NCBI GenBank assembly: GCA_003598175.1 | Contig: QZKN01000097.1 | Coordinates: forward strand, 23,861 to 87,860 | DNA length: 64,000 bases | Direction of reading: 5' to 3' | From: Candidatus Omnitrophota bacterium | GTDB taxonomy: Bacteria > Hinthialibacterota > Hinthialibacteria > Hinthialibacterales > Hinthialibacteraceae | Shown here: positions 16,789 through 47,485 of the stretch, piece by piece | How positions within the stretch are numbered: position 1 is the first letter of the stretch | Layout: each line of letters starts with the position of its first letter | Made by a program: the position numbers and the translations under genes | The notes under the pieces: generated by a model | What the model saw: the letters and a program-made list of their open reading frames with translations, nothing else | What the model was told of the DNA's origin: nothing | Database searches by the model: none

Positions 16789-18813
16789 TCAATATAATGA
16801 CCATCCACTAACAGCCACCGGCGCCGGACCGATGGCGCGGGTGATGAATTCCAACACAATCGGCGTGCGCACTTCGATAAAATCACGGGATAACTGCGCC
16901 GCTCGGTCCCAATCCGCCGGCGTTTTTCCACGTCCCCATTTTTCGGCTTCTGCCGGGATGGCCGCTCGCACAGCATCCAGCTGTTCGTTCAAGCGCATCG
17001 TCACGTGGTCCTCGCGGAGAGGACCGGCGAGATACTCCTGCAATCGCAGCCAAAAAAATGTCCGGTAATCCTGATTTTGCAGCAATCTGGCAAAGAGCAA
17101 TCCGATCAGTCCGCTGCCCGCGTTTGTCGCGTTTGTCAAGGTGTTTTGGTTGACGAGATAGCCTTGAATTCCGGAGCCGAAGCTATATTCCACATCCCAC
17201 AAAAAAAACTTCCATTTCCCAGTCAGAAATCGTTCGCGGGCGGCGTACCAATTATGATGCGGCCAGTCGTAATTCTGCATCCATACGTTGATGATGATGT
17301 AGGCGGTAAAATTCTCCAGATCGAGTATTTCCTGTAACGATTCATAATTTTGCGGATTCGTCAAATCGTTGCGGGACACCCAATTGCTGAATGTTGTCCA
17401 TTCCTGCATATCACCGTCGCTCACTTCGTTGTCGACAATGACATCCCACAAATCCGGGCCGTAATGCTCTTCGAGAAAATCCTCGTGGATACGCTCGCAG
17501 GGATTGTAAAGCCCCCAATACTCGCCGTTCAGATACAATTCGGCGAATATGCCGTGGCTGGACAGCTGGTTCATATCCAAAAACACGTTGCGAACCGCCT
17601 GATCGCTGACGTAAATGGCGGTTTCCCGCTGCATTTCGCGATCGTATCCCCACGAGTCGTTGAATCCCGCTCGCAAAACCAGCTGATCGAAACGGTGAAC
17701 GTCGGTCGTTGGGAAGAGGGGATAATCCAGCTTGGCCGCCCCGTAATCGGAGCGAAAATACAGGCGGAAAGAGCGTTTGGGAGAACGGGTGCGGGACGCG
17801 CCGCCGTGAATCCGCAGCCCGGCGTTTTCGACGAATTCGCGGTCGCCGTTCCGGTTAAAAAACTCGACGCTTACCGGCCGTTCCCATTCGCGTCCGTGAC
17901 GATCCGAATTTTGATAAATACCTGTGGTTCGATCCCACAAATTCGGCGGATCCGTCGCCAGAGACAGAATCGGCAGCACGATGTCCGGCCGGAGGATATA
18001 CGTATGCGTACCTACATCGCTGGGATAATACTCCTCACGAAACGCCCGCGCGCGGAGCGGGGTGGACCGGGTAATTTGCAGGGGATTTTGTACTATGGTA
18101 TCGGAGGCGGTGGGTATGGAGCCGTCGGTCGTATAACGGATCACGGCGTCCGATTCGTGTGAGGATAGATCAACCGTAAGCGGTTGTTTAAAAACGCCGG
18201 CTTGCGCCGAAAACAAGGGAGCGGAGGCAAATCCCTTCGCGCCCGGTTTACTATTCGATTGGCCCGGCGTCGATTCCAGGAAATAAACCCATTCACCGCC
18301 GCCGTCGGGCTGTCGCCCATAAGAGACATCCCGCCGCTGCGCCGGAAAGGTGAGACTGTCGGCCGCCGTCCCATCTTGTCGGTATAAAGCCAGATATTCT
18401 CCTTCCCGCCGCAATCGGAAGTTCGTGTGGTACGAATTCGGATCGAGAAGATCATAACCGGTCGCCCGGATTAATACAAAACCATTCGTAGGCAGAGTAA
18501 TGGATGGCAAACGCCATTTGCCGGGAGCAAGAGGATCGTCGGTCAATGCATAACCACTTAAATCCATCGCACTGGAACCGGAATTATACAATTCAATCCA
18601 TTCCAGCGAAGTATCGGATTCATCAACAGCCGATGAGGAAGCGAGAAATTCATTGATGACAACTTCCGCGTTGCCACGGAATGAAAAAAAGGAAAGAAAA
18701 AGGATGGAAAGAAAAAATGACATCCTCTGCCCAACAAAAGTCGTCAGGTTCACCACCGCCCTCCACCGGAAAGAATTCAAAAAGAGATCCGTTTTCGAAG
18801 CGAGAGGAGTCAT
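16789..18813 (-). CDS. Lamin-tail-domain plus CotH kinase-family secreted protein
   Basis: LTD motif VINEFLASSS...LEWIELYNSGSSAMDLSGYALTDD is followed by a CotH-like region (RIHGGASR...SFRLYFRSDYG). Confidence 0.75.
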   Translation of the reverse strand: MTPLASKTDLFLNSFRWRAVVNLTTFVGQRMSFFLSILFLSFFSFRGNAEVVINEFLASSSAVDESDTSLEWIELYNSGSSAMDLSGYALTDDPLAPGKWRLPSITLPTNGFVLIRATGYDLLDPNSYHTNFRLRREGEYLALYRQDGTAADSLTFPAQRRDVSYGRQPDGGGEWVYFLESTPGQSNSKPGAKGFASAPLFSAQAGVFKQPLTVDLSSHESDAVIRYTTDGSIPTASDTIVQNPLQITRSTPLRARAFREEYYPSDVGTHTYILRPDIVLPILSLATDPPNLWDRTTGIYQNSDRHGREWERPVSVEFFNRNGDREFVENAGLRIHGGASRTRSPKRSFRLYFRSDYGAAKLDYPLFPTTDVHRFDQLVLRAGFNDSWGYDREMQRETAIYVSDQAVRNVFLDMNQLSSHGIFAELYLNGEYWGLYNPCERIHEDFLEEHYGPDLWDVIVDNEVSDGDMQEWTTFSNWVSRNDLTNPQNYESLQEILDLENFTAYIIINVWMQNYDWPHHNWYAARERFLTGKWKFFLWDVEYSFGSGIQGYLVNQNTLTNATNAGSGLIGLLFARLLQNQDYRTFFWLRLQEYLAGPLREDHVTMRLNEQLDAVRAAIPAEAEKWGRGKTPADWDRAAQLSRDFIEVRTPIVLEFITRAIGPAPVAVSGWSLY

Positions 18814-18887
18814 CTATCGATCACTCCCCTCGCTTCCGTTTATAGGGAAAAAAGTAGGATCTTTATATAACGATAACACAAGACGGA

Positions 18888-20432
18888 TCAGACGGCATAT
18901 GTTTTTTCACGTTCGGTTCCGGCAATCAGGCGGTTGACGGCATTGAGAAACGCTTTCACGCTGGCGCGCAGGACGTCGGTGTCCGTCCCGCGTCCGATGA
19001 CTTCTCGATCCCCTTTGCGCAGGATGATATTCGCCGATCCCAACGCGTCGGTTCCGGTCGTGACCGCGCCGACGTGATAATCGACCAGTACGGCATCCTC
19101 CATACCCGTCAGTTGCTTGATCACGGAAAAAGCCGCATCCAGTGCGCCCGCGCCCGCCCCGGTCGCCTCCACGATATCGCCATTGGAGCGCAGCCGTACA
19201 TGGGCATTGGGCTTTTGTTGCTTCTCGATGTTGATGCTCAGATCCTCCAGCGAATATTTTCCATAATCAGCAGCGCGGGATTGCTCATCCACGATCGCGA
19301 TGATGTCTTCGTCGAAGACGTTTTTCTTCAAATCCGCCAATTCCTTGAATGAATCGAAGGCTTTTTCCAACGATTCGCCTTCCAGATGGAATCCCAGCTC
19401 TTCCAGGCGTTTGGTAAACGCATGGCGGCCGGAATGCTTGCCCAGCACCATCGAATGGCCGGTCCAGCCGACGGATTGAGGCGACATGATCTCATACGTC
19501 GTCCGCTCCTTCAACATCCCGTCCTGATGAATGCCCGCTTCGTGGGCGAAGGCGTTTGCGCCGACGATGGCCTTGTTCGGCTGCACGCCGATGCCGGTAA
19601 AGCGCGTCAACAGGCGGCTGGTGGGGTAAATCTGTTCGGTGTGAATGTTCGTGTGCACGTCGAAGAAATTCTTTCGCGTTTCGATATTCATCACGATTTC
19701 TTCGAGCGAGGCGTTGCCGGCGCGTTCGCCGATGCCATTGATGGTGCACTCCACCTGCCGCGCGCCGCTGCGAACCGCCGCCAGCGAGTTGGAAACGGCC
19801 AATCCCAAATCGTTGTGGCAATGCACGCTGATGACGGCCTGATGCACATTCTTCACTTTTTCGAAAATGTAAGCGATCAAATCGCCGAATTCCCACGGAT
19901 TTGAATACCCGACCGTGTCGGGTACGTTGATCGTGGCGGCGCCGGCGTCAATCGTCGCTTCGATGACTTCGCAAATGTAATCCCGATCGGTGCGGGCGGC
20001 GTCCTCGGTGGAAAACTCCACGTTTTCGGTGTACCCGCGCGCCCGCTTGACCGCCTTGACGGCGATGTCGCGCACTTCCTTGTTGGTTTTCTTCAATTTC
20101 TTCTCGACGTGAATGTTGCTGGTCGCGATAAAGGTGTGAATGCGCGGCCGGCTGGAATATTGTACTGCTTCCCAGCAGCGGTCGATGTCTTTTTCCATCG
20201 CGCGCGCCAGCCCGCAGATTTGCGGACCCTCAACCTGCTGCGCCACAGCTTTGACCGCCTCGAAATCGCCGGGCGACGAAATGGGAAAGCCCGCTTCGAT
20301 GACGTCCACGCCCAACCGTTTCAATTGAAACGCAAATTCCAGCTTCTCCTGCAGATTCATACTGAATCCGGGGGATTGCTCGCCGTCTCTCAAGGTGGTA
20401 TCGAAAATAATGATTTTTTTATCGTCGTTCAT
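18888..20432 (-). CDS. leuA: 2-isopropylmalate synthase
   Basis: [22 protein letters not shown]... with an HxH metal site, 514 aa including the C-terminal regulatory domain. A citramalate synthase paralogue cannot be excluded. Confidence 0.85.
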
Positions 20433-20575
20433 GATCGTTGTTTCCTTTTCATTTCAGGGGTGATGATGAGCGTCAAGCCACTCATGTTTGTTTTCTCTCG
20501 TTCCTGCCGTTTGCATATAAGATCGCTAAGATCGCTTTCGTCGCCGAGTTCATTGCCAAGGCCTAACACGATCAT
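20429..20575 (-). CDS. Upstream ORF (48 codons) translationally coupled to leuA
   Basis: The GAAAGGAGG RBS is followed by an ATG (or an in-frame GTG with better spacing). The [51 protein letters not shown] ends TCATGA, overlapping the leuA ATG. It lies between the T-box terminator and leuA. Confidence 0.3.
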   Translation of the reverse strand: MIVLGLGNELGDESDLSDLICKRQEREKTNMSGLTLIITPEMKRKQRS

Positions 20576-20649
20576 CACCTCCTTTCAACTGCGAAACTGT
20601 ATTCACGCTGCCATTTGTGGACAGGATGTCCGCGCTCCGGCGGTTTGAG

Positions 20650-20927
20650 ACCAATAAAAAACCTCGCCCCATGGTTCAGGGGCGAGGTCGGTTTTTCGAT
20701 CCCGCGGTACCACCCTGCTTCAGCGTTCGTTTCCAGGAACGCCCTTGTTTGCGCATGATCACGGTTGCGAACCGGCTTCAACTAGTGATTCGATGTGAAC
20801 GTTCGCGGAAGCGACTCCAAGGCGAGTTCGGCGCTTCGAAATACCGGTTCGCACCACCCACCGGCTCTCTCCGATTTCGAGATGACGCCTACTGCTCCTC
20901 TTCACGGTCTTTGGTGATAAAATTTTA
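20650..20927 (-). ncRNA. T-box riboswitch leader controlling leuA, probably Leu-specific
   Basis: The minus strand shows the canonical T-box sequence AGGGTGGTACCGCGG (20716-20702). Next comes the terminator hairpin GACCTCGCCCC-tgaaccat-GGGGCGAGGT plus TTTTTT (20689-20650). A candidate specifier reads GAA-CUC-G (Leu). The leader is about 270 nt from the predicted transcription start. Confidence 0.6.
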
Positions 20928-20934
20928 GTTAATA

Positions 20935-20962
20935 ATTATAACCGAAACGATTCGGTTGTCAA
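20935..20962 (-). promoter_or_regulatory. Sigma-70-type promoter for the T-box leader
   Basis: On the minus strand, TTGACA (20962-20957), a 16 nt spacer, then TATAAT (20940-20935). Confidence 0.5.
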
Positions 20963-21379
20963 TGCATGATTTACTCTTTGTGAAAACACGAACATGTATC
21001 CGGCGACTATGTCTCCTTCCCCAACCTATTGATTTACCGGAAAATGCCTTTTAGTCGCTTAGATTGTTACAAGTGAACTACTCCGACTACATCTTGGGTT
21101 TTAGCCTCCGGAGGTCGCTTCTTTGACACATGGACGCTGGGAGTGAGATTTGTAGGGGGGAATATTACGCGTGGAAAAAAGGAGATGCCGCCGATAGTTG
21201 TGGTTCAATATGATGGGTCGGAGGAGATGGAGTTTTGGATGGAAGAATGAAGTCTGAATCGGGAGGGCAGGATGATAAGGATATTCAAGATAAGGTAACG
21301 CCGTGGTCTCGACTTCAGGATGCCGGTAAGAAGCCGGAGGGAAAGTACGAAGCATCACGAAAGAAAGGAGACGGTGAAC

Positions 21380-21673
21380 ATGAAGTACACCGTGATTCTC
21401 ACGGAAGAACAGGGCCGTTTTCAAGCAACGGTTGCCGGATTACCGGATTGTCACGTGAAGGCGAATACACGACTGGATGCGCTCAACACCATTCGTGACG
21501 CAATCAACCGATTGATCGGCCGTAGTGAGATTGTCCAACTCGAGGTGCCAACGAACCCGAAATTCTCGAACCTTCATTCCGATGTTCCCTGGGAATGGTT
21601 TGGGGCTTTTAAAGAAGATCCGACTTGGGAAACATTGTTCGATGACATCGAGCGCCAGCGAAGTACCGATTAA
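21380..21673 (+). CDS. HicB-like (UPF0150 fold) antitoxin with a C-terminal extension
   Basis: MKYTVILTEEQGRFQATVAGLPDCHVKANTRLDALNTIRDAI. It is immediately followed by a PIN toxin gene. Confidence 0.55.
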   Translation: MKYTVILTEEQGRFQATVAGLPDCHVKANTRLDALNTIRDAINRLIGRSEIVQLEVPTNPKFSNLHSDVPWEWFGAFKEDPTWETLFDDIERQRSTD

Positions 21674-21688
21674 ATTGAAAGATCGCAT

Positions 21689-22117
21689 ATGTATCTATGG
21701 GATTCCAACATTTTGAGGCATTATGGGGAGGGACGCCCCCATATTCGACTCTATCTGGAGCATGTGAGTTGGTCTGAAATTGCGATTCCATCCGTTGTGG
21801 TTGCAGAAGTGTTGCGAGGGCGATGTGATTTTGCTCTAAAAGCCACCCCGGCGTTAGCAGTATACGCTCATGAGATGTTGATGAAAACAAAAAAGTTTTT
21901 GGAACAATTTACGATTTGTGTTTTTGATGAAGATTGTTCAAAAGCATTACACGAACGGAAACAACGTCACAAGGCTCATAAGCGTTATGCCGACATGCTT
22001 ATTGCTGCCATGGTGCAAGCGGGAAACCATGTCATTGTTACGCGAAACGTAGAAGATTTTGCCGTGCTATTACCCAAGAATCGAATTATCAATTGGATTG
22101 ATGAAAAACCGAAATGA
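21689..22117 (+). CDS. vapC: PIN-domain toxin (VapC family)
   Basis: MYLWDSNILRHY...VVAEV...IVTRNVEDF. 142 aa. Confidence 0.75.
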   Translation: MYLWDSNILRHYGEGRPHIRLYLEHVSWSEIAIPSVVVAEVLRGRCDFALKATPALAVYAHEMLMKTKKFLEQFTICVFDEDCSKALHERKQRHKAHKRYADMLIAAMVQAGNHVIVTRNVEDFAVLLPKNRIINWIDEKPK

Positions 22118-22665: not shown

Positions 22666-23067
22666 GATTACCTCCTTTGGGTTCTACTTCCACTGGAAAC
22701 GCTTTACATTTTAAAAAAGCTCGTCCTATGAATGTAGAGTAGATAGAAGTAAAATTCCTTCGTATGAAATAATAACTCTTTGCCGATTTTAGGGAATAAA
22801 CCCAGTGACTAGTATGTACATCAAGATCGTATCTGGCGTCATCCTTTTTTCCTTGCATCTCGCAATGAACGTTCCTCTACTTTAGTGGTCAAGACGTATG
22901 CCGTCAATACGCATGCCGTCAATACGTAGTTATACCCAACGTATAATCGTTGATCAACAATCATACGACATGGAAAAACCCGTTCGGATTCATGCCGAAC
23001 AATTGAAACCCCATTATCACGGAAAAACCCAAAAACCATTCGGTTTTCTCTCGAATGGTAACATGGT

Positions 23068-23172
23068 TGTAGCATGGATTTTTTGATGTTTCCGGAATGA
23101 AGCGTAAGTCTAATGAAATCAAAGTCGGGGTGAGAGGATTTGAACCTCCGGCCCACTGCTCCCAAAGCAGTT
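23068..23172 (-). repeat. att-like repeat: a 48 bp 3' fragment of tRNA-Pro (23125-23172) plus a conserved 55 bp flank, called module A here
   Basis: Positions 23125-23172 are identical to 31526-31573, which is the tRNA from its 3' end through the anticodon stem. Positions 23068-23122 nearly match 31057-31112, and the 3' part recurs at 31504-31525. Confidence 0.8.
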
Positions 23173-23353
23173 TACCCCCCCTACATATGGTATCACGGAT
23201 TAACACGGTTAAACGTAAATCCCTCATTTTATTCATTCTTTACTTGCATGGTCTACTTTACAAGCATCATGATATACCATATACTGTGTTGACTTGGTGT
23301 TGACTTGAGAGGGTATGGCGACAAATATCTCAAGTTTCATAGGAGGCGACGGC

Positions 23354-24571
23354 ATGAGTAAAGCGGCACGAAAACGTTTGCGGTTGACGAAGTCGATTAT
23401 CGACAAATTGGAGTATCCGGCGTTGCAATCGGGAAATCCGGATGTTCCGATTTACCCGTCATGCATTTATTGGGATACGGAAATCCGTTCCTTCGCCGTC
23501 CGTGTTTTCCCATCCGGCAAAAAATCCTACATTCTCGATTATCGCTGCAGAGGGCGGCATCGGCGGATGACGATAGGTTCATGTTCGGTTTTGACTCTCC
23601 ACCAAGCTCGAGAACGGGTAAGAAAACTGATGATTCAAATTTTAGACGGGGTTGATCCCTTGGAAGTCCGGGAATCACAGCGGAAGGTTTTGACCGTTAC
23701 GGAATTTTCGAATTTATTCATCGAACGGTACGCAAAGAAGTTTCGAAAATCATGGAAGGAAGACGCGCGGAGGCTCCATAAACACGTTATTCCGGCGTTC
23801 GGCTCGATCAGGCTTGATGCTCTGCAACGCGGCGACATATCGGCGTTTCATGCGGAAATCGGTGAATCATCCCCGGTTGAAGCGAATCGGGTAACGGAAC
23901 TTTTCCGGCGCATGTTTCACGTCGCGATGGAATGGGGATATTTGCCGTCCACGTTCGAGAATCCGGCGAAGGGCGTCAAAAAGTTTCCGGAAAAATCGCG
24001 GGAACGTGTGTTGACGGAAGAGGAAATCATCGCAATCGGGCAGGCGTTGATCGAAGAACAGAATGTTTATGCGCGAACGGCGATCACGCTTGCACTGCAC
24101 TTGGGTAACCGTATCGGAGAAATCCTCAAAGCGAAGTGGCGGGATGTGAATCTGAAAAATCGAACCTGGCTGTTTCCGGATACGAAAAGCGGCAAACAGC
24201 ACACTTTGCCGTTGACGGAGGAAACCGTGGGGCTACTCGAAAGCATACCCCGTGATTCATCAACAAAGGAAATTTTTCCGATCAAGAGCGTTCGCAAGGC
24301 ATGGGAGAGAATACGAAAAAAAACCGGATTGGAGAATATTCGCATTCACGATTTAAGGCGTTCGGCGGCAAGCATGATGGTGGACGATGGAATCTCGCTG
24401 CACATCGTGTCCAAGGTTCTGAACCATTCGAGTTTATCGATAACCAGCGGGGTTTATGCGCATGTCGGGATGGATCCGGTTGAAGACGCCTTACAAAAAC
24501 ATTCGAAGAAAATCGTTTCTTTGTTTCAACCGGCAACCGATGAAACAGGCGGTAAGGAAAACGTTTCTTGA
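23354..24571 (+). CDS. int: Tyrosine-type site-specific integrase
   Basis: An AGGAGG RBS sits before the ATG at 23354. The catalytic region has ...RIHDLRRSAASMM...H...Y in the C-terminal part. It is adjacent to the partial tRNA copy. Confidence 0.85.
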   Translation: MSKAARKRLRLTKSIIDKLEYPALQSGNPDVPIYPSCIYWDTEIRSFAVRVFPSGKKSYILDYRCRGRHRRMTIGSCSVLTLHQARERVRKLMIQILDGVDPLEVRESQRKVLTVTEFSNLFIERYAKKFRKSWKEDARRLHKHVIPAFGSIRLDALQRGDISAFHAEIGESSPVEANRVTELFRRMFHVAMEWGYLPSTFENPAKGVKKFPEKSRERVLTEEEIIAIGQALIEEQNVYARTAITLALHLGNRIGEILKAKWRDVNLKNRTWLFPDTKSGKQHTLPLTEETVGLLESIPRDSSTKEIFPIKSVRKAWERIRKKTGLENIRIHDLRRSAASMMVDDGISLHIVSKVLNHSSLSITSGVYAHVGMDPVEDALQKHSKKIVSLFQPATDETGGKENVS

Positions 24572-26011: not shown

Positions 26012-26269
26012 ATGGATTATCACGAAATGATTAACGTTCCGCTCCACTTGGATCCCGATGCTTTGCTCAGCGAAAGGCAAGCGGCGGAGTTTCTTGGTTT
26101 CACAATTCGAGCGCTTCAATCCTGGAGGCAAAAAGGCAACGGTCCGAAATTCGTCAAAATTTCGGCAAGGGCGATTAAATATAGGCGGCGGGATTTGGTT
26201 GAATGGTGCGAGGGAAAAATTCGAAAATCCACATCCGATAGCGGCGGCGCGGGGGGGGATGAATCATGA
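26012..26269 (+). CDS. alpA: AlpA/Xis-like HTH (HTH_17) excisionase or regulator
   Basis: LLSERQAAEFLGFTIRALQSWRQKGNGPKFVKISARAIKYRRRDLVEW. Its stop overlaps the next gene (ATGA). Confidence 0.7.
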   Translation: MDYHEMINVPLHLDPDALLSERQAAEFLGFTIRALQSWRQKGNGPKFVKISARAIKYRRRDLVEWCEGKIRKSTSDSGGAGGDES

Positions 26270-27975
26270 GCACGGCGCTTGCGGTGAAGTTTAATCCAGA
26301 CTTCGAGCGGCAAATTCTTTCTTCAATCCTTTATGATCCGTCAAACGTCGAACGCTGTGGCGCTTTGTGCGGAGCGGATTTTTGCAATAAGACATTGGGA
26401 AAAATTTACCAGGCGGCTTGCGATATTTATCGAGACGGCGGCATCGTAGATGATAGTCTTATCATTGATAGATGTGGGGACGTGCACATAAATAAAGCTT
26501 CATTGTATGCGCTTCGCGACGAATATGTAACCGATTCCAATCTCGATTTTTGGGTTTCGCAAGTACAGGATTACGGCAGGCGGCTGGCGATAGGTAAATT
26601 ATTTGAGTCGGCGGCGAAGCGCATTGAACAAGCGGAAAATCTATCTGATTTCACGACAGATGTTATCGGAAAATTGCAGGCAATCAGCGGCGTAAATCCA
26701 ACAGATTCGACGGAAAAAACCGCCTGGCCGGAACCGTTGCCGCCAGAGGCTTACATTGGATTACTTGGTGAAATAACCAAATTCATAGAACCGGAAACCG
26801 AAGCGGATCCGGCGGGGATTTTGGCTCAACTGTTGGTAGTGTTTGGTAACGCAATTGGAAGGAATCCGTATTTTTTCGTGGAATCGGATTTCCATTACGC
26901 AAACGAATTTTTATGCTTAGTCGGTGAGACGTCAACGGCGGGGAAAGGCACTTCTTGGGGGTATATTCGGCGATTGTTTAAGGACGCGCTGCCCGACTAT
27001 TTTAAAAACAGAGTTGAGCCTGGTCTGAGCAGCGGTGAGGGGCTAATTCACAAGGTTCGAGATGCAACCGAAGTAGCGGGCGAAATCACGGATCCGGGAA
27101 TGGCTGACAAACGGTTGCTTGTGACAGAGGGGGAATTTGCATCACTCTTGCAGGCGATGAACCGGCCCGGAAATCGAGTTTCCACGATTATAAGAGAAGC
27201 CTGGGATTACGGGGATTTGGGGACGATGACTCGAAACAATCCTCAAAGGGCGACGGGCGCGCACATAAGCATTATCACGCATATCACATTTGAGGAGTTA
27301 AGAAAAACTTTTAAGGAGACGGACTGTCTTAACGGTTTCGGTAACCGTTTTTTGTGGGTTTGTGTAAAAAGGCAGAGATGCCTTCCGGAAGGCGGCAACG
27401 TTGATTTTTCGCGGCGTCAACAATACATTGAAAAGTTGCAACGTGCGGTAGAATTTGCGCAAGGACATTCGGCTGAGGTGCCTTTTGACATTCATGCGCG
27501 TGAACTTTGGCATGCAATCTATCCAAAACTTACGCAGGCGCGAGCGGGACTATCGGGCGCGATGTTGGCGCGATCTGCCCCCCACGTTCGCCGCCTGGCG
27601 CTGATTTATGCCTTGAGTGATTTCTCTTCCGTTGTTGAGGAAAAGCATTTGCAAGCATCACTAGAATTTTGGGAATATGTCGAACAATCGGTTGAATATA
27701 TTTTTGGCGATCATTACGGCAACCGAACCGCGGAAAAAATCATCAACGCACTTCGAGATAGTCCCGAAGGCCTAAGCGAAACGGCAATTTCGCGAGACGT
27801 CTTCGGCGGGAATAAAAATTACACAGAAATCAATCATGCGATAGAATCATTAAAAGCGGCTGGTAAAATTCGAACAGAAAAAAGAAGAACAAGCGAACGT
27901 GGGCGGGCGGCAACTATCGTTTTACGCTCGGATAGGTGTACGAAAGAAACGAAAGAAACGAAAGAAATGAAATAA
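26266..27975 (+). CDS. Replication protein: DnaB-helicase N-terminal-like domain fused to a DUF3987 primase-associated domain
   Basis: An N-terminal DnaB-N-like region (ILSSILYDP...LGKIYQAACDIY) and a central DUF3987-like region (YFFVESDFHYANEFLCLVGETSTAGKGTSWGY). The C-terminal TKETKETKEMK comes from a 9 bp tandem repeat at 27940-27972. Confidence 0.7.
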   Translation: MSTALAVKFNPDFERQILSSILYDPSNVERCGALCGADFCNKTLGKIYQAACDIYRDGGIVDDSLIIDRCGDVHINKASLYALRDEYVTDSNLDFWVSQVQDYGRRLAIGKLFESAAKRIEQAENLSDFTTDVIGKLQAISGVNPTDSTEKTAWPEPLPPEAYIGLLGEITKFIEPETEADPAGILAQLLVVFGNAIGRNPYFFVESDFHYANEFLCLVGETSTAGKGTSWGYIRRLFKDALPDYFKNRVEPGLSSGEGLIHKVRDATEVAGEITDPGMADKRLLVTEGEFASLLQAMNRPGNRVSTIIREAWDYGDLGTMTRNNPQRATGAHISIITHITFEELRKTFKETDCLNGFGNRFLWVCVKRQRCLPEGGNVDFSRRQQYIEKLQRAVEFAQGHSAEVPFDIHARELWHAIYPKLTQARAGLSGAMLARSAPHVRRLALIYALSDFSSVVEEKHLQASLEFWEYVEQSVEYIFGDHYGNRTAEKIINALRDSPEGLSETAISRDVFGGNKNYTEINHAIESLKAAGKIRTEKRRTSERGRAATIVLRSDRCTKETKETKEMK

Positions 27976-30597: not shown

Positions 30598-31056
30598 TAA
30601 TATTACTCAATCGCTTCCTGTCATGAATAACAAAAAAACGAATATCTGATGGTAAATTAAAATGATTCGCCATATAGGGGAGAGTTCTAAAAGGCCGTGG
30701 GGAAAGAAAATCCGAATCAATTCAAGAGGTCGAATTTCATGTTACGGGGAAGAGTTGCCGACGGTGGACGTACCGTTTGTCAGGCGTTCCTTTACGTTCG
30801 GCGGTTCGTATCGGATACCCGGTGGTGAGACTTTTCCAAGTCAAGCAATATAAAGCACGTCTCCCCGCAAAGGGCAGGCGTGAAAACCTGTTCCCTCGAC
30901 GTGTGGCCATGGGAAAAAAAACATGCCTTAGAATCGATTTGCGATTTAATTTTCTCGTAATAAAATGAGTGATTGAAGATTGCGTTCGGCGGGCCGAACT
31001 TCGCGGCGGCGATTGGTCCGAAAACCTGCCTTTTTTCTCTCTGTTGGTAGCACTGT

Positions 31057-31135
31057 GGTAGCATGGATTTTTTTGATGTTTTCGGAATGAAGCGTAAGTC
31101 TAATGAAATCAATGTGTGTTGAGATGGACTCGAAC
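31057..31135 (-). repeat. Internal att-like module: a second copy of flank module A plus a 24 bp tRNA-3'-end-like fragment
   Basis: Positions 31057-31112 nearly match 23068-23122. The next 24 bp read on the minus strand as GGTTCGAGTCCATCTCAACACACA (a T-loop and acceptor-like end), but no full cloverleaf can be drawn. Confidence 0.5.
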
Positions 31136-31525
31136 CAATGACCCTCTGATAGATTATCAGAGGGCATACGTTTTGACGACCGACGACGCGGCGACCGGGT
31201 TGACAAGATGGGGCGGCGTTTCATCCTTCCATCGACCGGCGGCAGGAAAAAACATCAAACAGCAGGAAACAGCCTTCGTTTTTGTTCCCCGTGCATACTC
31301 AACGCATACTTGAGAAAACCCCGGCGTTCGTAAGTCTAAATATTCGAGGATGTTAAAAAATAAGGCGATTTGATAGGCAATCAGACGACATGAAAAAACC
31401 CGTTCGGATTCGTGGATATTAGATCAATAATCCGAAAATCGGCTCTTTTTTTTGGTGTTGACTTGGTGTTGACTTGAGAAAATCCGTTAAAAATCGAAGG
31501 AAACGTAAGTCTAATGAAATCAAAG

Positions 31526-31599
31526 TCGGGGTGAGAGGATTTGAACCTCCGGCCCACTGCTCCCAAAGCAGTTGCGCTACCAGGCTGCGCTACACCCCG
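31526..31599 (-). tRNA. tRNA-Pro (anticodon TGG)
   Basis: The minus-strand sense reads CGGGGTG-TA-GCGC-AGCCTGGTA-GCGC-A-ACTGC-TTTGGGA-GCAGT-GGGCC-GGAGG-TTCAAAT-CCTCT-CACCCCG-A. All four stems pair, the anticodon loop is TT-TGG-GA, and the length is 74 nt without an encoded CCA. Confidence 0.85.
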
Positions 31600-33857: not shown

Positions 33858-35237
33858 TCATTCCGGATCGATTTCGTAGCCTTGTTTCGCATAGTGTTGC
33901 AGCTTGTAGGTCAGCGCGCGGCGGCTGATGCCGAGAGAGCGGGCGGTTTCCGTGCGATTATACCGATTTTCTCGCAACGCATGCAAAATAGCTTCGCGCT
34001 CGATGTCTTCCATGCGCCTGGCCGGCGAGGATTCCACCGATTCGTTTTCAAGCGCGGTGAACGATTTTAGTATGCGGCGGGGGAGGTGTTCGGGGATGAT
34101 CAATTCACCGCGCGCCATCAGGGTCGCCCGTTCCATCGCGTTGCGAAGTTCGCGGACGTTGCCGGGCCAGTGATATTCTTCAAAGCAGTGCGTCACCGCC
34201 GCGGACAGGCGGGGGCTGCCTTGTTTGAACGTTTGCGCGAAATGAATGGCCAAGGGAATAATATCGGCTTTTCTGTCTCGCAAAGGCGGGATGTAGATTT
34301 CCATCACGTTCAACCGAAAAAACAAATCCTCGCGAAAATTCCCCTTTTCCACTTCCTGTTCCAGATTGCGGTTCGTCGAGGCCAGAATGCGGGTGTTGGT
34401 TTTATATTCCTGGTTGGAGCCAACGCGTTGATAGGTTCCTTCCTGCGTAATGCGCAGCAGTTTCGCCTGCAGGGCGGGAGACATTTCGACGATTTCATCG
34501 AGCAGAATCGTTCCCCCGTTCGCTTCCTCGAACCGGCCGATGCGTTGATGCGTCGCGCCCGTGAAGGAGCCTTTTTCATGGCCGAACAATTCGCTCTCCA
34601 GCAGATTTTCCGGGATGGCGGCGCAATTCACTTTGATCAAGGGTTTGGAAGCGCGAGGGCTCCAGGCGTGAATCACATCCGCCACCACTTCCTTGCCGAC
34701 GCCGCTTTCGCCGGTAATGAGAATACGGCTGTCGGAGGAGGCCACCAACGCCGCTTCCCGAAAAACCTCGATCATGAGCGGGCTGTGAACGACGACGGTG
34801 TCCGGCAATTGCAATCCGTCGGGAATCTGCAATCGGGATCGTTCCCGGATGCCGGCCGCTTTTTGCACGGAGGAGAGGAGTTCATCCAGATCGATGGGTT
34901 TTTCCAGATAATTCACGGCGCCGTCGCGCATGGCGTTCACCGCGTCGCGAATATCGGCGTAAGCCGTAACCAGCAGCACCGGCAAGGTGGGATATTTTTC
35001 TCTCGTTTTCCGCAGCGTTTCCAAACCCGAAATGCCCGGCATCCGAACGTCGGAAATCATGATATTGATTTCTTTCGTATCAAGCAAAGCCAGGGCCTGC
35101 TCGCCGGAGGTTGCCGTGAGGATCTGGAATCCCTGGCCGGACAGAAAGGATTGCAGAAGGCTTCGCTGGCTGGGATCGTCATCGACGATCAAAACGCGGA
35201 TGTGGGAGACCGCTTCTTTCGTATTGGAAACAGCCAT
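33858..35237 (-). CDS. Sigma-54-dependent response regulator (NtrC family)
   Basis: REC domain (VLIVDDD), AAA+ motifs GESGVGKE and GAFTGA-like, and a C-terminal Fis-type HTH. Confidence 0.85.
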   Translation of the reverse strand: MAVSNTKEAVSHIRVLIVDDDPSQRSLLQSFLSGQGFQILTATSGEQALALLDTKEINIMISDVRMPGISGLETLRKTREKYPTLPVLLVTAYADIRDAVNAMRDGAVNYLEKPIDLDELLSSVQKAAGIRERSRLQIPDGLQLPDTVVVHSPLMIEVFREAALVASSDSRILITGESGVGKEVVADVIHAWSPRASKPLIKVNCAAIPENLLESELFGHEKGSFTGATHQRIGRFEEANGGTILLDEIVEMSPALQAKLLRITQEGTYQRVGSNQEYKTNTRILASTNRNLEQEVEKGNFREDLFFRLNVMEIYIPPLRDRKADIIPLAIHFAQTFKQGSPRLSAAVTHCFEEYHWPGNVRELRNAMERATLMARGELIIPEHLPRRILKSFTALENESVESSPARRMEDIEREAILHALRENRYNRTETARSLGISRRALTYKLQHYAKQGYEIDPE

Positions 35238-35238
35238 C

Positions 35239-36852
35239 TTAGAGTTCTTTCGACGCGAGTCTCAATCCGCGAATGCGAAAGCGAGCGCCTTGATTCTCGC
35301 CGGGAACATACGCGATTTCCCAACCATGCGCGAGCACGATTTGATGAACGACGGCAAGCCCCAATCCCGTGCCTTTCTCCCGCGTGGTAAAATACGGACG
35401 AAAAATCTTGTCCTGATTTTCCGGCGCAATCCCCGGCCCGTCGTCGCGAATTTCGAACGTGACTTCATTGGATTTATTTTTGTCCAGGATAATCTCGATG
35501 CACCCCTTTTCCTCCACGGATTGGATGGCGTTGAGAAATAGATTGAAAATCACCTGCCGAAATAATAACTCATCCGCTTCGACGGTCAATTCGGGTCCCT
35601 GCAATTGGAAATAAATCATTTTGTCTTCGATATCGCTCTTCAATGCGCGATGAACATCGTTGATCAAGGAATTGAGGAGCACCGCCGACGGTTTCAATTC
35701 ACGCGGTTTCGAATATTCGATAAATTCGTTTAGCTGGACGGTTATGCGATCCACTTCATCTGTGATTTTCAGCGAGCGATTGCGGATTTCCTCGGACGTA
35801 TCGGCTTGTTTGGCGATGATTTGCGCCAGTCCGCGGACAATATTCAGCGGATTTCTCGTTTCATGCGCCAGACCGGCGGCGGCGATATTCATTTCGCGCA
35901 AATGCGTATTCATTTCACTGGCGCGGATCAAACGGAGCTGTAAGGAGGACGATTGAACCAGGTTGCGCCATGCAAATCCCAAGCCGATAATGGCCGCAAA
36001 GGCAAATCCGCAAATCGTAATCCGCAGCCATTGATCCCGTTGGCAATCCTGGAGAAATTGTTGTGTGGAGAGTTCAATCACAAATCCGTGCAGTCCCTGC
36101 TTTTGAATCAAAGCCTGATACCGTTCTTCGGATATCCAGGGCGGCCGTCCAAATCCGAATCCGGGACGTCCCCCTCGCTGCCGGAATCGCTCCATGCGGC
36201 TGATGAATTCCGAGGCCATACGCGTGACATCCGGTATCATCGCCGTCGCCGAGGGAATCTCGTTCGCTCCCCATTCCGGCGGTCCGTTGCGATGATTGTT
36301 CCGGCGGTCCTCTTGAAATTCCCCCGGCGGTCCTTCCGGCGGCTCTTCCGGTGAACCCTCGGGAGAGGGAAACCGGGGCCGCCCCCGTCTTGAATCCGGT
36401 CGGAAACGATTGTCGTCAATGATGATCGTCGGCGATTCTTCCTGATTCTCATCCAGTACATTCGCGCCGAAATCCACGAGGTTCATGTAGGCGACTGATT
36501 TTTTCCCCCATTGTTCCACTTGTTGCGGAAGATTGTTGATATCGATTTCGGTATCGCCGGCGGAGGCGGAAAGAACGACTTCTCCGGCGGAATTCAGGAG
36601 GGTAATGGAGTGCAATTCCTCCGATTCCGCTAATTTTTGTAGCGCCGTTTCCAGCCGGCTTTGACTGATGAAACCATCCGGACGGCGCTGGGATTGGAGA
36701 ACGATCGCCACCGTGTCCGAGATATCCACCGCGCGATTTAGCAATCCCTTGCGGGCGGATTCCTTGAAACGGTTATGTTCGACAACCTGCCAAAGGATAA
36801 TCACGATCCCGACGAGTACGAAAACGATGAAAATGGTTTTGGATCGATTCAT
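35239..36852 (-). CDS. Sensor histidine kinase, partner of the NtrC-like regulator
   Basis: N-terminal TM, periplasmic region, HisKA (LAHETRNPL) and HATPase (GTGLGLAVV). Its stop abuts the regulator start. Confidence 0.8.
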   Translation of the reverse strand: MNRSKTIFIVFVLVGIVIILWQVVEHNRFKESARKGLLNRAVDISDTVAIVLQSQRRPDGFISQSRLETALQKLAESEELHSITLLNSAGEVVLSASAGDTEIDINNLPQQVEQWGKKSVAYMNLVDFGANVLDENQEESPTIIIDDNRFRPDSRRGRPRFPSPEGSPEEPPEGPPGEFQEDRRNNHRNGPPEWGANEIPSATAMIPDVTRMASEFISRMERFRQRGGRPGFGFGRPPWISEERYQALIQKQGLHGFVIELSTQQFLQDCQRDQWLRITICGFAFAAIIGLGFAWRNLVQSSSLQLRLIRASEMNTHLREMNIAAAGLAHETRNPLNIVRGLAQIIAKQADTSEEIRNRSLKITDEVDRITVQLNEFIEYSKPRELKPSAVLLNSLINDVHRALKSDIEDKMIYFQLQGPELTVEADELLFRQVIFNLFLNAIQSVEEKGCIEIILDKNKSNEVTFEIRDDGPGIAPENQDKIFRPYFTTREKGTGLGLAVVHQIVLAHGWEIAYVPGENQGARFRIRGLRLASKEL

Positions 36853-36858
36853 GGTTTA

Positions 36859-38061
36859 TTATTGTATCCGTAAGGGTTTCCAGGATTTACTTTTTCGATT
36901 GACCGCCTTCGTTTCCGTGTCCGGAACCTGCTCTTGATTTAGCGGTTGAATCGCGTCCGGCGCACCGGTTTCCTTTTCAGGAACGTTGTCGAAAAACTTA
37001 TCCATCTGATCCTGAGTAAATGCCTTTGGCGCCAATTGGGTATGGCTTTTTTCCCGCGCGGCCAGATCCACGAGTTTGTCCGGATTCTCCACCACATAGG
37101 GCGTCAGAAAAATCAGCAATTCCGTCTTCGAGTTATTCTTTACTTTACGTTGAAATGCCAATCCCAGCAACGGGATATCCCCCAGAATCGGCACCTTTCG
37201 ATTGGTTTCGGTGCTATTGTCCTCCATCATGCCGCCGATGACGACCGTTTGCCCGTTCGGAGTATTGACCACGGTATCGGCGGAGCGAATAGCGAAAACC
37301 GGGGATTCAATCGTATCCGAAATAGGGACAGTTTCATCGGTGAGGGTCGAGATTTCGGGAGAAAGGATCATCTCTACCAATCCATCCTGCGTGATGAACG
37401 GCGTGACGCGCAGAATGATGCCGATGTCCTGATAGGTAACGGTATTGATCGTTTGCCCGTCCGAAGTGACGCGGCTGTCCGTGACGAACGGAAAACGTTG
37501 CCCCACCGTGATGACGGCTTCCTGATTGTTGCGGGTAAGAATCGAGGGGCGCGAGAGGACTTCGAGTTTTCCCACTTCGGACAATGCCCGTAACGTCAAC
37601 TGTACATCATTTTCAAGCAGCCGGTAAAAGCCGCCGCGCGATTCCGCCGCCAGCCCGAACATGGTTTCGAAGATGCTGCCGTTGGCGCCTCGTTTTTTCA
37701 CATCCAGGGTACCTTCCAGGCCGAAATCCAGATCATCGCGATAGGTCACTTCGAGAAAGACCACCTTGATCAAAACCTGCTGAACCGGACGGTCCAGATT
37801 TTCAACGATCTGCTTGATGTGCTCATTGGTTTCCTCGTCGGTGATGACGATGATGGAGCGGCTGTCGTAATCCACCTGGATCATTGCTTCACCGATCATG
37901 CCCTTGGTCAGATATTCTCTCATGCCGGCGGCGCCGGAATAGGAAGAGCGACCGGTGGTGGTTCCGCCGAAGGTCCGCATTTGAGCGGACAGGTCGCTCG
38001 CAATGAGCAACAGAAACGAGCAGTTGAAAACGATGATTAATAAATTTCTACGAAAATTCAT
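36859..38061 (-). CDS. Secretin C-terminal half (GspD-like secretin domain) with its own signal peptide
   Basis: MNFRRNLLIIVFNCSFLLLIASDLSAQ is a signal peptide. The body has VPILGDIPLLGLAFQ...ELLIFLTPYV, the secretin signature. A GAGGT RBS lies 6 nt before the ATG. Confidence 0.75.
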   Translation of the reverse strand: MNFRRNLLIIVFNCSFLLLIASDLSAQMRTFGGTTTGRSSYSGAAGMREYLTKGMIGEAMIQVDYDSRSIIVITDEETNEHIKQIVENLDRPVQQVLIKVVFLEVTYRDDLDFGLEGTLDVKKRGANGSIFETMFGLAAESRGGFYRLLENDVQLTLRALSEVGKLEVLSRPSILTRNNQEAVITVGQRFPFVTDSRVTSDGQTINTVTYQDIGIILRVTPFITQDGLVEMILSPEISTLTDETVPISDTIESPVFAIRSADTVVNTPNGQTVVIGGMMEDNSTETNRKVPILGDIPLLGLAFQRKVKNNSKTELLIFLTPYVVENPDKLVDLAAREKSHTQLAPKAFTQDQMDKFFDNVPEKETGAPDAIQPLNQEQVPDTETKAVNRKSKSWKPLRIQ

Positions 38062-38082
38062 GGTTCGTTACCTCGAATTGGA

Positions 38083-39540
38083 TTATTGGCCTGGCCGGAA
38101 AGATTGCGTCTGCGTTGACGTGTTCGTCATGGTGCGATTCCCAAGGGTGGAGGTATTTTGATTGGTGGTGGTTCTTGCCGTGCTTGCGGATGTTTGATTT
38201 TCGAAAATGCCGCGCAGAATCTGTTCTACATTTTGCACGTCGGCGTATTCCAGCTTATAGACATACACTTTTTGCTTTTTTGCCGGATTGGCGTCGAGCA
38301 TTTGAATCATAGCTGCGATCTGCGACATGGTCTCGCTGGCGGCGAAGACGACGAGTGAATCGGTTCTCGGATCGGCGATGGCGCGAACGGTGGTTTGTTG
38401 CAATTTCCAATCGCTGGTTTGTTGTTGGGTGTTGGCGCGAGTCGTTCCACCCATTCCTCCCGGTCCTCCCATAAATCCACCTCTGCCTCCGAATTGGGGA
38501 GCGAACTGGTTGCTTGTTGCCGTGGATTGGTCGGGAAACAATTCGGTGATCAATTCCGCCATTTCCGTGGCGTCGGCATATTGCAGATGGAAAACGCGGA
38601 TTTCGGTGACGTCTTCCACGCTGATATCCACTTCCTTCACCAGTATTTCTATGGTTGGCATCAATTCTTCGGACGCGGTGACGATGAGAGAATTGGTTTG
38701 TTCGTCGGCGACGGCGACTACGCGCGAGGCGGCTTTCAGCGCGTCGCTTTCCTCTTCCTGGTTACCGCCGGGACGTTGTTGTCCCCCTCTGTCGCCGAAT
38801 CCCGGAAAACGACCGGCAAATCCGCCGCGTTGATTTCTGGCATTGCTGTTACTGTCGGTTTGAAACAATTGGGTGATCACTTGCGCCAATTCGCTCGCAT
38901 CGGAGTATTGCAACCGAAACACGCGGATGGAGGCGATGCTGGAAATGGAGGTGTCCAGCGCGCGAATGATTTCGGTCATGCGGCGGATATTTTTTTGTGT
39001 GTCCACGAGCACGATGGCGTTGCTGCTTTCATTGGCGGACATGGTCGCGTATGTCGGAAGCAACGGCTGCAGATTGTTGATCAGTTGCACCGCGTTCGTA
39101 TAGCGGACGGGAATGATCTGCGTAACCATTTCATCCGTTTTGGGAATCCTATTCGGATCGTTGCCCGTTTTCACGGGGAGATCCCGCAGGCGGGCGTCGT
39201 CCCGCCGCACGATGGTCAACGTGCGCTCATTGCGAATGGCGGCATAGCCTTTTTCATGCAGGATGGTGTTGAGTAGATTGACCGCCTCTTCCTTGCTCAA
39301 CGGTTGATGGCTCCATACATCCACGCGGCCATCCACGTTGGTATCCATCACAATGATGAATCCCGCCGCTTCACTTAAATAATCGAGAACGGTTTGCAGC
39401 GGCACGCCGCGAAAATTCAACCGAATCGTTTGCCCATTGTCGTTCCCTGGATTTTGCGCATGCAATGCCGGAGAAGAGAAGCAGCACAACGCCGCGATTA
39501 CGATACAGCCTACTGATTTGAGAAACATTTGGATTTTCAT
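38083..39540 (-). CDS. Secretin N-terminal half (N0 plus three secretin_N domains) with a signal peptide
   Basis: Signal peptide. N0 is NFRGVPLQTVLDYLSEAAGFIIVMD. Three secretin_N repeats (IRVFRLQYSDASELAQVITQLF and similar). It ends in a Thr/Asn-rich tail. It is in the same frame as 36859..38061 but separated from it by two TAA stops. Confidence 0.75.
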   Translation of the reverse strand: MKIQMFLKSVGCIVIAALCCFSSPALHAQNPGNDNGQTIRLNFRGVPLQTVLDYLSEAAGFIIVMDTNVDGRVDVWSHQPLSKEEAVNLLNTILHEKGYAAIRNERTLTIVRRDDARLRDLPVKTGNDPNRIPKTDEMVTQIIPVRYTNAVQLINNLQPLLPTYATMSANESSNAIVLVDTQKNIRRMTEIIRALDTSISSIASIRVFRLQYSDASELAQVITQLFQTDSNSNARNQRGGFAGRFPGFGDRGGQQRPGGNQEEESDALKAASRVVAVADEQTNSLIVTASEELMPTIEILVKEVDISVEDVTEIRVFHLQYADATEMAELITELFPDQSTATSNQFAPQFGGRGGFMGGPGGMGGTTRANTQQQTSDWKLQQTTVRAIADPRTDSLVVFAASETMSQIAAMIQMLDANPAKKQKVYVYKLEYADVQNVEQILRGIFENQTSASTARTTTNQNTSTLGNRTMTNTSTQTQSFRPGQ

Positions 39541-40142
39541 TTTTGCATCTCCTGTCTGCGTCTTTCCATCATCTTTTTGAGAAGATCACTGCTCGATTCG
39601 CCGGGCGCATCGGTTTTTTCCGTTTCGGTGGTCGAAACGGGACTCAATCGATCACCGCCGGACGTTCGACGTTCCCGTGTTTCTCTTCTCGAAGCGCCCG
39701 ATGCGGACGCGAGTTGCCATTCTCCCTGATCCTGCCGGCGCAATGCCATCCCCACCGATAGCGTCAACGGTTGCCCGTTCACCTGCAACTTGATATTGCT
39801 CGTACCGATTTCGACGATCTCGTGATCGGCGATGGTTTCGCCCAATTTGCAAACGGCGTCATATCCGGAATGAGTGCCTTCGAAAAAGGCATAAACCGTC
39901 GCATCCGCAATCATCGTTCCGATTAAACTGAATTCCTCGATAACCGGCGTTGGTTCGACGCGGGGTTGGACGGTTATTTTTTTTCGCCGGTCGGGATTGA
40001 AAATATTGCGTTCGACAAGAATCCGGAATTGCTCGTAACTCCATTTGCCGCTGGAATCCTGATTCTCCGCGGCCACATAAGCAGGCTGGAGGAGGCAAAT
40101 AAGTACGGCCGCGATAAAAGCATTGTATACGTTCGTGTTCAT
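39537..40142 (-). CDS. Putative T2SS GspC/PilP-like periplasmic protein
   Basis: Signal/TM segment, and position between the secretin and the GspM/L genes. Weak sequence evidence. Confidence 0.35.
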   Translation of the reverse strand: MNTNVYNAFIAAVLICLLQPAYVAAENQDSSGKWSYEQFRILVERNIFNPDRRKKITVQPRVEPTPVIEEFSLIGTMIADATVYAFFEGTHSGYDAVCKLGETIADHEIVEIGTSNIKLQVNGQPLTLSVGMALRRQDQGEWQLASASGASRRETRERRTSGGDRLSPVSTTETEKTDAPGESSSDLLKKMMERRRQEMQK

Positions 40143-40170
40143 GATGCAATCTTCACTTTGCTATGGTTTC

Positions 40171-46240: not shown

Positions 46241-46243
46241 TTT

Positions 46244-47470: not shown

Positions 47471-47485
47471 TATTCATTCTCGTCT

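Follow-up and report, generated by a model that had tools for sequence, protein, structure and literature searches.

The question raised by this locus is how leuA, the gene for 2-isopropylmalate synthase, is controlled in a bacterium outside the Firmicutes, the group in which T-box riboswitches are concentrated. The locus lies within 64,000 nucleotides (nt) of contig QZKN01000097.1, labelled Candidatus Omnitrophota bacterium (this whole stretch, numbered from its first letter, is referred to as the window). An original prediction, made from the sequence alone, had placed a leucine-specific T-box upstream of leuA on the minus strand. The identity of the T-box, its leucine specificity and its position before leuA in a non-Firmicute are confirmed here. 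In addition, the ~220 nt between the terminator of the T-box and leuA house a module that was absent from that prediction: a leucine-rich upstream open reading frame (uORF) enclosed by a long-range helix that hides the uORF's own Shine-Dalgarno sequence (SD) and start, an arrangement not described before. Transcription control by the T-box together with this downstream uORF/helix module acting on leuA is, very probably, the explanation of the leader. A more specific proposal, in which the leader holds two sensors, the T-box reading uncharged tRNA-Leu and a 'one-shot' uORF reading charged tRNA-Leu to gate LeuA at the overlapping stop-start, is offered tentatively, as a possibility about which we are rather more doubtful than convinced. 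The elements that make up the first part of the leader are the following:

20962-20935, minus strand: sigma-70-type promoter (TTGACA at 20962-20957, 16-nt spacer, TATAAT at 20940-20935; 12/12 consensus positions)
20914-20675, minus strand: T-box leader with Stem I and its specifier loop, Stem II, IIA/B, Stem III and the antiterminator (RF00230 and RNAalifold)
20826-20824, minus strand: specifier codon CUC (Leu) within GAA-CUC-G, aligned to the RF00230 specifier position
20716-20678, minus strand: antiterminator, with the T-box sequence AGGGUGGUACCGCGG at 20716-20702 and the 7-nt bulge UGGUACC at 20712-20706
20689-20654, minus strand: intrinsic terminator (stem 20689-20660 with 11 pairs, 8 of them G-C, and an 8-nt loop; T6 at 20661-20656)

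At the level of family membership, the Rfam covariance model RF00230 matches 20914-20675 of the minus strand over its full length (model positions 1-219 of 219) at 110.8 bits, above the gathering score of 93 (E = 1e-23), and this is the sole cis-regulatory match of Rfam in the window. The Stem I landmarks UGA...AGUA, AGAGA and GGUGGUG align to the model and represent the GA/kink-turn, the AG bulge and the distal loop. The T-box sequence AGGGTGGTACCGCGG is found at 20716-20702 of the minus strand; read as AGGGUGGUACCGCG with its UGGUACC bulge, it shows both the 14-nt T-box and the UGGN bulge of the family. Within the bulge, UGGU at 20712-20709 is the predicted partner of the ACCA-3' end of the tRNA. 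Bacterial tRNA-Leu carries an A73-CCA end, which fits the UGGU bulge. The terminator hairpin appears in both the minimum-free-energy (MFE) and the centroid folds, and because the 3' arm of the antiterminator, CUCGC-CCCU (20686-20678), overlaps the 5' arm of the terminator (20689-20679), the two structures are mutually exclusive. The original prediction therefore held in nearly all that it had said of the T-box itself: the proposed covariance-model check came out above threshold, the invariant T-box sequence lies on the expected strand, the GAA-CUC-G element has its CUC where the model places the specifier, and an antiterminator competing with the 20689-20660 hairpin can be drawn and is recovered, together with Stem I, in the RNAalifold consensus of 11 related leaders. 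The strong terminator placed directly after the T-box was also found, with its GC stem and T6, and differs from the prediction only in the trivial respect that its stem has 11 pairs and not 10.

The distribution of this T-box was surveyed over 160 LeuA loci, namely the best 80 each of species-representative genomes and of metagenomes; 20 of them were also tested by covariance model and the rest by a less sensitive motif search. A T-box core was detected 5' of leuA in 6/160 loci (L002, L003, L013, L083, L084 and L085), L002 being an 'Omnitrophota' metagenome-assembled genome (MAG) with 74% LeuA identity and L003 and L013 being Sumerlaeota. The covariance model upheld the T-box in L002 and L003 and gave none in the 18 other loci tested with it (Planctomycetota, delta-proteobacteria, Kiritimatiellae, Nitrospinota and others); none was present at the Verrucomicrobiota leuA loci examined, nor in LeuA relatives that bear Armatimonadetes and Elusimicrobia labels and share 59-60% identity. 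In another eight LeuA relatives, of 62-89% identity and including Candidatus Hinthialibacter antarcticus, a T-box above threshold is always found directly 5' of leuA (8/8; 98.7-120.9 bits). Altogether, the ten distinct relatives examined (LeuA 62-89%) have one before leuA in 10/10 cases and, together with a Sumerlaeota MAG, score 98.7-120.9 bits. RNAalifold run on 11 leaders returns Stem I, Stem II, IIA/B, Stem III and the antiterminator with compensatory changes in 35/57 pairs; pairs of Stem I are among those that covary. The specifier stretch GAACTCGCC is invariant in 11/11 leaders, as are GAACUCGCC and CAGGGUGGUACC; the T-box stretch CAGGGTGGTACC is also invariant, and helix A2 (the upper antiterminator) covaries from G-C to A-U in 5/11 sequences.

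This conservation bears directly on two other ways of reading the element. One is that the T-box is a decaying relic, acquired horizontally with leuA and now regulating nothing. T-boxes are indeed rare outside the Firmicutes (PMC2494555, PMC3766115), the 64-kb window contains a single one, and the LeuA of the clade is nearer to Sumerlaeota and delta-proteobacterial LeuA (59-61%) than to that of Planctomycetota (~55%). However, the above-threshold score recurs from the window through 10/10 relatives down to 62% LeuA identity, the 35 covarying pairs and the invariant specifier and T-box sequence are the mark of purifying selection, and equivalent terminators remain intact 3' of the T-box in all relatives. 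Sigma-70-like promoters also stand at the same distance in most of them, with TTGAC(A/T)-N17-TAnnnT promoters 5' of the T-box in L083, L162, L163, L164, L166, L167, L168 and L169. Decay is consequently a very improbable account, and the T-box, judged by these patterns of conservation, is functional and selected and no relic. The other reading holds that the specifier is not Leu and that a neighbouring triplet of the loop (AAC, ACU or UCG) is read, so that another tRNA would be sensed. An assignment made on sequence may slip by a register, and the window itself encodes tRNA-Pro only; yet CUC occupies the specifier position of the model and is followed by the conserved purine, the loop sequence does not vary among the 11 leaders, and the UGGU bulge suits the A73 discriminator that textbooks give for tRNA-Leu. 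Moreover, leuA is the regulated gene in every case, so that the amino acid of the specifier agrees with the regulated gene both here and at every related locus. A shifted specifier is even harder to credit than a relic.

In the mechanism that we favor for the first module, transcription from the sigma-70 promoter would enter the full-length T-box leader. When leucine is ample, charged tRNA-Leu would be unable to hold the antiterminator, and the 20689-20660 hairpin and its U-run would terminate transcription before leuA. When leucine is scarce, the anticodon of uncharged tRNA-Leu(GAG) would pair with the CUC in Stem I and its ACCA end with the UGGU bulge, an interaction expected to stabilize the antiterminator and to allow read-through into leuA. 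The dependence on tRNA is inferred by analogy with characterized T-boxes. Such a mechanism at leuA is unsurprising, because leuA is a known T-box target outside the Firmicutes in Geobacter and Pelobacter (PMC2494555). The element resembles the Bacillus subtilis ilv-leu and the Geobacter sulfurreducens and Pelobacter carbinolicus leuA T-boxes in its RF00230 landmarks, its termination type and its Leu specifier (PMC2494555, PMC12452182), and those of Geobacter and Pelobacter likewise lie directly before leuA in a non-Firmicute (PMC2494555); it differs from all of them in the ~220 nt with a conserved uORF and helix that separate its terminator from leuA. The lineages named in a later T-box survey are Firmicutes, Actinobacteria, Chloroflexi, Deinococcus-Thermus and Geobacter (PMC3766115). 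No paper was found that reports T-boxes in Omnitrophota/OLB16 or Sumerlaeota, Verrucomicrobia appeared only in incidental co-mentions, and T-boxes are unmentioned in PMC545781. The T-box itself is therefore one more member of an established kind, placed as is usual outside the Firmicutes, and the host lineage is modestly new.

Regarding the host, the LeuA of the window is an exact match to a protein on the 112.8-kb contig 3300038436, Ga0394679_068490, of the Joint Genome Institute (JGI), also contained in the NCBI MAG. Both LeuA and the GspE ATPase of the contig bear the NCBI label 'Candidatus Omnitrophota bacterium', and NCBI places Omnitrophota in the Planctomycetes-Verrucomicrobia-Chlamydiae (PVC) group, in agreement with the non-Firmicute, 'PVC-like' host that had been suspected from the gene neighborhood. 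GspE was tried as a taxonomic marker and set aside: its best matches (73-79%) are labelled Verrucomicrobia, BRC1, Chloroflexi and Saccharimonadales, and are uninformative beyond the NCBI label of the contig. The nearest LeuA with a genus name is that of Ca. Hinthialibacter antarcticus (75% identity). Hinthialibacterota (= OLB16) has been split from Ca. Omnitrophota, where it was formerly included, and is depicted as motile and as degrading sulfated polysaccharides (PMC9324843); FGE-sulfatase domains, several glycoside hydrolases, a rhamnogalacturonan lyase, a chemoreceptor and a type II secretion/pilus operon encoded in the window match that lifestyle. We are confident that the host lies outside the Firmicutes, and moderately confident that it belongs to the OLB16/'Omnitrophota' group. 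Hinthialibacterota is the more likely phylum than Omnitrophota, because the nearest named LeuA is that of Ca. H. antarcticus and because OLB16 was separated from Omnitrophota.

What, then, lies between the terminator and leuA? The elements of the second module, and the gene that it precedes, are these:

20586-20576, minus strand: very strong SD of the uORF, GAAAGGAGGUG, recognized from the sequence
20569-20429, minus strand: uORF with a GTG start and 46 codons (VLGLGNELGDESDLSDLICKRQ...), whose stop TGA (20431-20429) overlaps the leuA ATG as ATGA
20542-20519, minus strand: conserved core of the uORF, GAC GAA AGC GAU CUU AGC GAU CUU (D-E-S-D-L-S-D-L), from the codon alignment
20584-20561, minus strand: 5' arm of the long-range helix, covering the uORF SD, the 8-nt spacer, the start and the first codons, with the core GGUGAUGAU at 20579-20571
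20479-20455, minus strand: 3' arm of the helix, anti-SD-like, with the core AUCAUCACC at 20467-20459 followed by CCU; it ends 22 nt 5' of the leuA ATG
20447-20443, minus strand: leuA SD, AAGGA, 10 nt 5' of the ATG and outside the long-range helix
20432-18888, minus strand: leuA, 2-isopropylmalate synthase (Pfam HMGL-like 5.9e-93, HCS_D2 and the C-terminal allosteric LeuA_dimer 8.5e-31)

The uORF is present in 11/11 Hinthialibacter-like leaders, with 34-60 codons and a start (GTG or ATG) always 8 nt after GGAGG, and in the window it is also called as a gene by JGI, with 48 amino acids from an ATG two codons upstream. Its SD, (A/G)AGG(A/U)GGUG, is kept in 10/11 leaders, L169 having GCGAGGUG. In the nine leaders measured against the exact leuA ATG, the stop of the uORF falls -2 to +26 nt from it, and ATGA overlaps recur. 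The N-terminal core [DE]-E-S-D-L-x-[DEN]-L of the peptide is kept and its C-terminal part is unconserved; a 12-nt motif was found in 9/11 uORF leaders (not in L168, L169 or L085) and in 5 scattered matches elsewhere. According to the codon alignment, Leu in the core survives changes among the codons TTA, CTT and CTG. Leu makes up 23.6% of the 22 N-terminal residues of the uORFs, where the C-terminal part has 4.8% and the window as a whole 9.5% (P = 1e-10), and the rare codons CTT, TTA and CTA account for 41/57 Leu codons of the uORF N-termini versus 26/335 in the adjacent leuA genes. The retained Leu, the Leu enrichment and the rare Leu codons point to translation and to leucine. When 172 sequences (1.23 Mb) were scanned blind for short Leu-rich ORFs that bear a DL motif and are preceded by an SD at their start codon, matches were returned only directly 5' of T-box-controlled leuA. 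The peptides match no Pfam or NCBIfam family at E <= 10, and 20432-20650 no Rfam family at E <= 10, where only the T-box and noise were returned. The uORF module is absent from the Sumerlaeota leaders. There, a Leu(CUC) T-box precedes leuA (L003 2625-3001; L013 1-1040) without uORF and helix, and in L013 a stretch of ~800 nt with another ORF separates the T-box terminator from leuA.

The long-range helix occurs in every leader. Its 5' arm takes in the start, the spacer and the second half of the uORF SD, which pair with CACC-N-CC plus the complement of the spacer, and its 3' arm ends 14-48 nt ahead of the leuA ATG. In the window the duplex has -29.6 kcal/mol (z = -5.6, 0/500 shuffles) and appears in the MFE as well as the centroid fold; over the 11 leaders, comparison with 500 dinucleotide shuffles each favored the duplex in most cases and gave z = -1.1 to -6.3, with 0/500 shuffles as stable in 4 leaders and <=6/500 in 7. 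RNAalifold on an unguided MAFFT alignment yields exactly this helix and nothing else. When the alignment was anchored, pairing extended to 95% of cells and 6/10 pairs were altered on both sides, a covariation reached by 0/500 shuffles, and the covarying positions are those of the free spacer and of the unconserved C-terminal codons. An AAGGAG-like leuA SD with normal spacing is found in every relative. The composite architecture of the leader is real; its function is what we infer.

The helix is also the best-supported single feature of a competing view, according to which the stretch between terminator and leuA is a non-coding structured RNA (an mRNA-stabilizing or protein-binding stem-loop, or an SD-like docking site) and the reading frame is incidental. 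The conservation of AGC (Ser) and GAC-CUU at the nucleotide level, the weak signal of frame openness by itself and the unconserved C-terminal peptide would agree with it. On the other hand, a start that in all 11 leaders follows a near-perfect SD by an unvarying 8 nt, the retention of Leu through two-nucleotide synonymous changes from TTA to CTT or CTG, the restriction of Leu enrichment and rare codons to the N-terminal part and the clustering of stops at the leuA ATG speak against it, RNAalifold finds no conserved structure inside the loop, and the stretch lacks an Rfam match at E <= 10. This view is consequently unlikely. A somewhat smaller chance is given to a functional acidic micropeptide, co-expressed with LeuA, whose leucine content would be unrelated to sensing: its core is conserved in the non-Leu residues too, and two pipelines call it as a gene, but only ~10 residues are conserved while the length (34-60 amino acids) and the C-terminal half vary freely, rare Leu codons are hard to explain for a needed product, and the frame occurs only in leuA leaders in the blind scan of 172 sequences and belongs to no Pfam or NCBIfam family. 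A micropeptide function, a purely structural RNA and positive coupling through the ATGA overlap are all possible for the second module; the reading that we prefer is that it probably constitutes a ribosome-based check of leucine at the level of translation, the sign of its control being proposed only tentatively.

How does such a module compare with known leaders? The mgtL uORF lies inside the Mg2+-sensing mgtA riboswitch leader, where it integrates a second signal, and the present leader resembles it in having a uORF embedded in a riboswitch leader; no paper was found that describes the combination of a T-box with such a uORF. Rare Leu codons are used by the leu leader of E. coli. Like the Staphylococcus aureus ilvD and the enterobacterial leu leaders, the uORF is a short Leu-rich ORF before leucine genes, which in those systems lets the ribosome sense charged tRNA-Leu (PMC5794164). 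Those leaders act on a terminator that follows the leader ORF, whereas here the only terminator, that of the T-box, precedes the uORF, and any effect of the uORF must therefore fall on translation or on the fate of the mRNA. A classical leader-peptide attenuator was discarded on these grounds: Leu codons are present, but there is no terminator-like site between 20569 and leuA, and the uORF reaches the leuA start. Translational attenuation of the ermC/cat type was also rejected, as the helix holds the SD and start of the uORF and not the leuA SD, whose predicted unpaired probability (0.3-0.7 by partition-function folding) is unresponsive to a simulated stall. The actinobacterial LEU element is similar in combining a uORF with Leu codons and a conserved base stem in a leuA leader, and its mechanism is uncertain and not classical attenuation; its base stem pairs the run of Leu codons with the leuA SD and encloses a pseudoknot (PMC1262725). 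Here, in contrast, the SD and start of the uORF pair with a segment 5' of the leuA SD, the latter lies unpaired outside the helix, the Leu codons are interspersed and in the loop, unpaired in the consensus, and a T-box precedes the module, so that this element was rejected as well.

Tandem leaders of branched-chain amino acid genes in Bacillota, which join a T-box to a second T-box or to a ykkC-type 'guanidine'/ppGpp element, also place two serial modules before leuA or ilv with an AND-like logic (PMC12452182); unlike them, the second module here is a translated uORF with a self-sequestering helix, without Rfam match and without a second terminator. A likeness in the handling of ribosomes comes from a survey of uORFs in Sinorhizobium meliloti, which, as far as its abstract reports, describes overlapping uORFs with a ribosome-binding site stronger than that of the main gene, where the traffic at the stop-start sets initiation at the main ORF, and by the same source overlapping uORFs act by occlusion and coupling in other bacteria (PMC13285730). 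Unlike here, the abstract of that survey mentions no amino-acid-specific codon bias or covarying closing helix (PMC13285730).

It can be proposed that the uORF is loaded mainly co-transcriptionally, before the 3' arm of the helix exists, because the helix hides the uORF's own initiation region, and that loading would occur again whenever a ribosome unwinds the 3' arm. The speed of ribosomes through the rare Leu codons would then report the supply of charged tRNA-Leu and set the traffic across the leuA start or the hand-over at it. In the version that we prefer, fast translation under ample leucine would hold the helix open, and the ribosomes passing over the leuA SD and AUG would damp initiation on transcripts from leaky read-through. 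Under scarce leucine, a ribosome would pause on the rare Leu codons that lie in the loop, the helix would close behind it, loading of the uORF would stop and the leuA SD would become free.

Several points weigh against this composite account. The ATGA overlap is equally compatible with positive coupling, that is, with control of the opposite sign. A simulated stalled ribosome gives no consistent change in leuA SD accessibility over nine leaders in partition-function folding, so that the module does not act by simply releasing a hairpin. The openness of the uORF frame alone is weakly significant, with per-sequence shuffle fractions of 0.16-0.9, and open-frame statistics were accordingly abandoned as proof of coding, being a weak test alone. 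The arms of the helix in alignment A2 were picked by complementarity, a circularity mitigated by the shuffle test and by the unguided RNAalifold. As for the T-box, no tRNA-Leu is encoded in the window (tRNA-Pro only) or in 12 related loci, and the MFE of the whole leader is not unusually stable (z = -1.44), which is common for switches. The compared sequences are related, so the counts do not represent independent events, and the host phylum is based on public labels and on the nearest neighbor of one protein.

The consensus TTGACA-N16-TATAAT promoter that had been predicted on the minus strand matches at 12/12 positions, with 0.8 sites of this kind, on looser criteria, in shuffles of the region, and transcription would start near 20928. 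The predicted leader of ~270 nt is right for the T-box part only: the complete 5' leader extends ~495 nt to the leuA ATG and includes the second conserved module. That the downstream gene is leuA was borne out by its Pfam domains, and NCBI and JGI both name its product 2-isopropylmalate synthase. An 18-nt inverted repeat, AACCGAAtcgtTTCGGTT, at 20940-20957 occupies the spacer between the -35 and -10 hexamers; it was dismissed as a candidate operator, not being kept in related promoters, and may be due to chance or be a strain-specific operator. Downstream of leuA, an LTD/CotH-domain gene (16789-18888 region) follows after a gap of 75 nt in which neither a terminator nor a promoter was detected. 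The closest relative has this gene behind leuA too (L162 6727-8691), and the reach of the T-box may therefore extend to it, unrelated as it is.

Other features of the window lie farther from leuA. Between its promoter and an integrative element sits a PIN-domain protein gene (21689-22117, plus strand), preceded by an ORF of 117 amino acids without Pfam match (21320-21673), probably forming a toxin-antitoxin pair. The integrative element, of ~8.4 kb, comprises a tyrosine integrase (23315-24571), an HTH_17 protein (26012-26269) and a DnaB-N-like protein (26266-27975) and is bracketed by tRNA-Pro sequences and other repeats. The tRNA-Pro(TGG) gene occupies 31525-31599 (minus strand), and a 57-nt copy of its 3' part at 23125-23181 (minus strand) is scored as a tRNA in truncated form. 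Identity between the repeats 23095-23172 and 31496-31573 is 97%. A diverged tRNA-like sequence at 31085-31162 makes a third copy, and three more flanking repeat pairs lie within 22950-23310 and 31018-31599. One attachment site has apparently served on more than one occasion. The type II secretion/pilus-like operon is long (33858-49198, minus strand) and includes GspK-like, PilM-like, GspF and GspE genes; its secretin is divided into two adjoining ORFs, with Secretin_N/N0 domains at 38083-39540 and the Secretin domain at 36859-38061, and a pair of a sigma-54 response regulator and a histidine kinase (33858-36852) adjoins it.

With these leaders, OLB16/Hinthialibacterota and Sumerlaeota, two candidate phyla about which little is known, join the short list of non-Firmicute lineages with T-boxes, and the repeated pairing of T-box and leuA outside the Firmicutes bears on the question whether T-boxes are spread by transfer along with their target gene. 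The second element is compact (~160 nt) and is provided with natural compensatory variants, which makes it testable in reporters or cell-free systems in spite of its uncultured host. If the two-sensor proposal is true, the leader would represent a new architecture that joins riboswitch and ribosome-mediated sensing of one amino acid. If the uORF does sense leucine, it would do so with a helix geometry unlike that of any textbook attenuator, and the organism would check both the uncharged and the charged pools of tRNA-Leu before making the first enzyme of the pathway.

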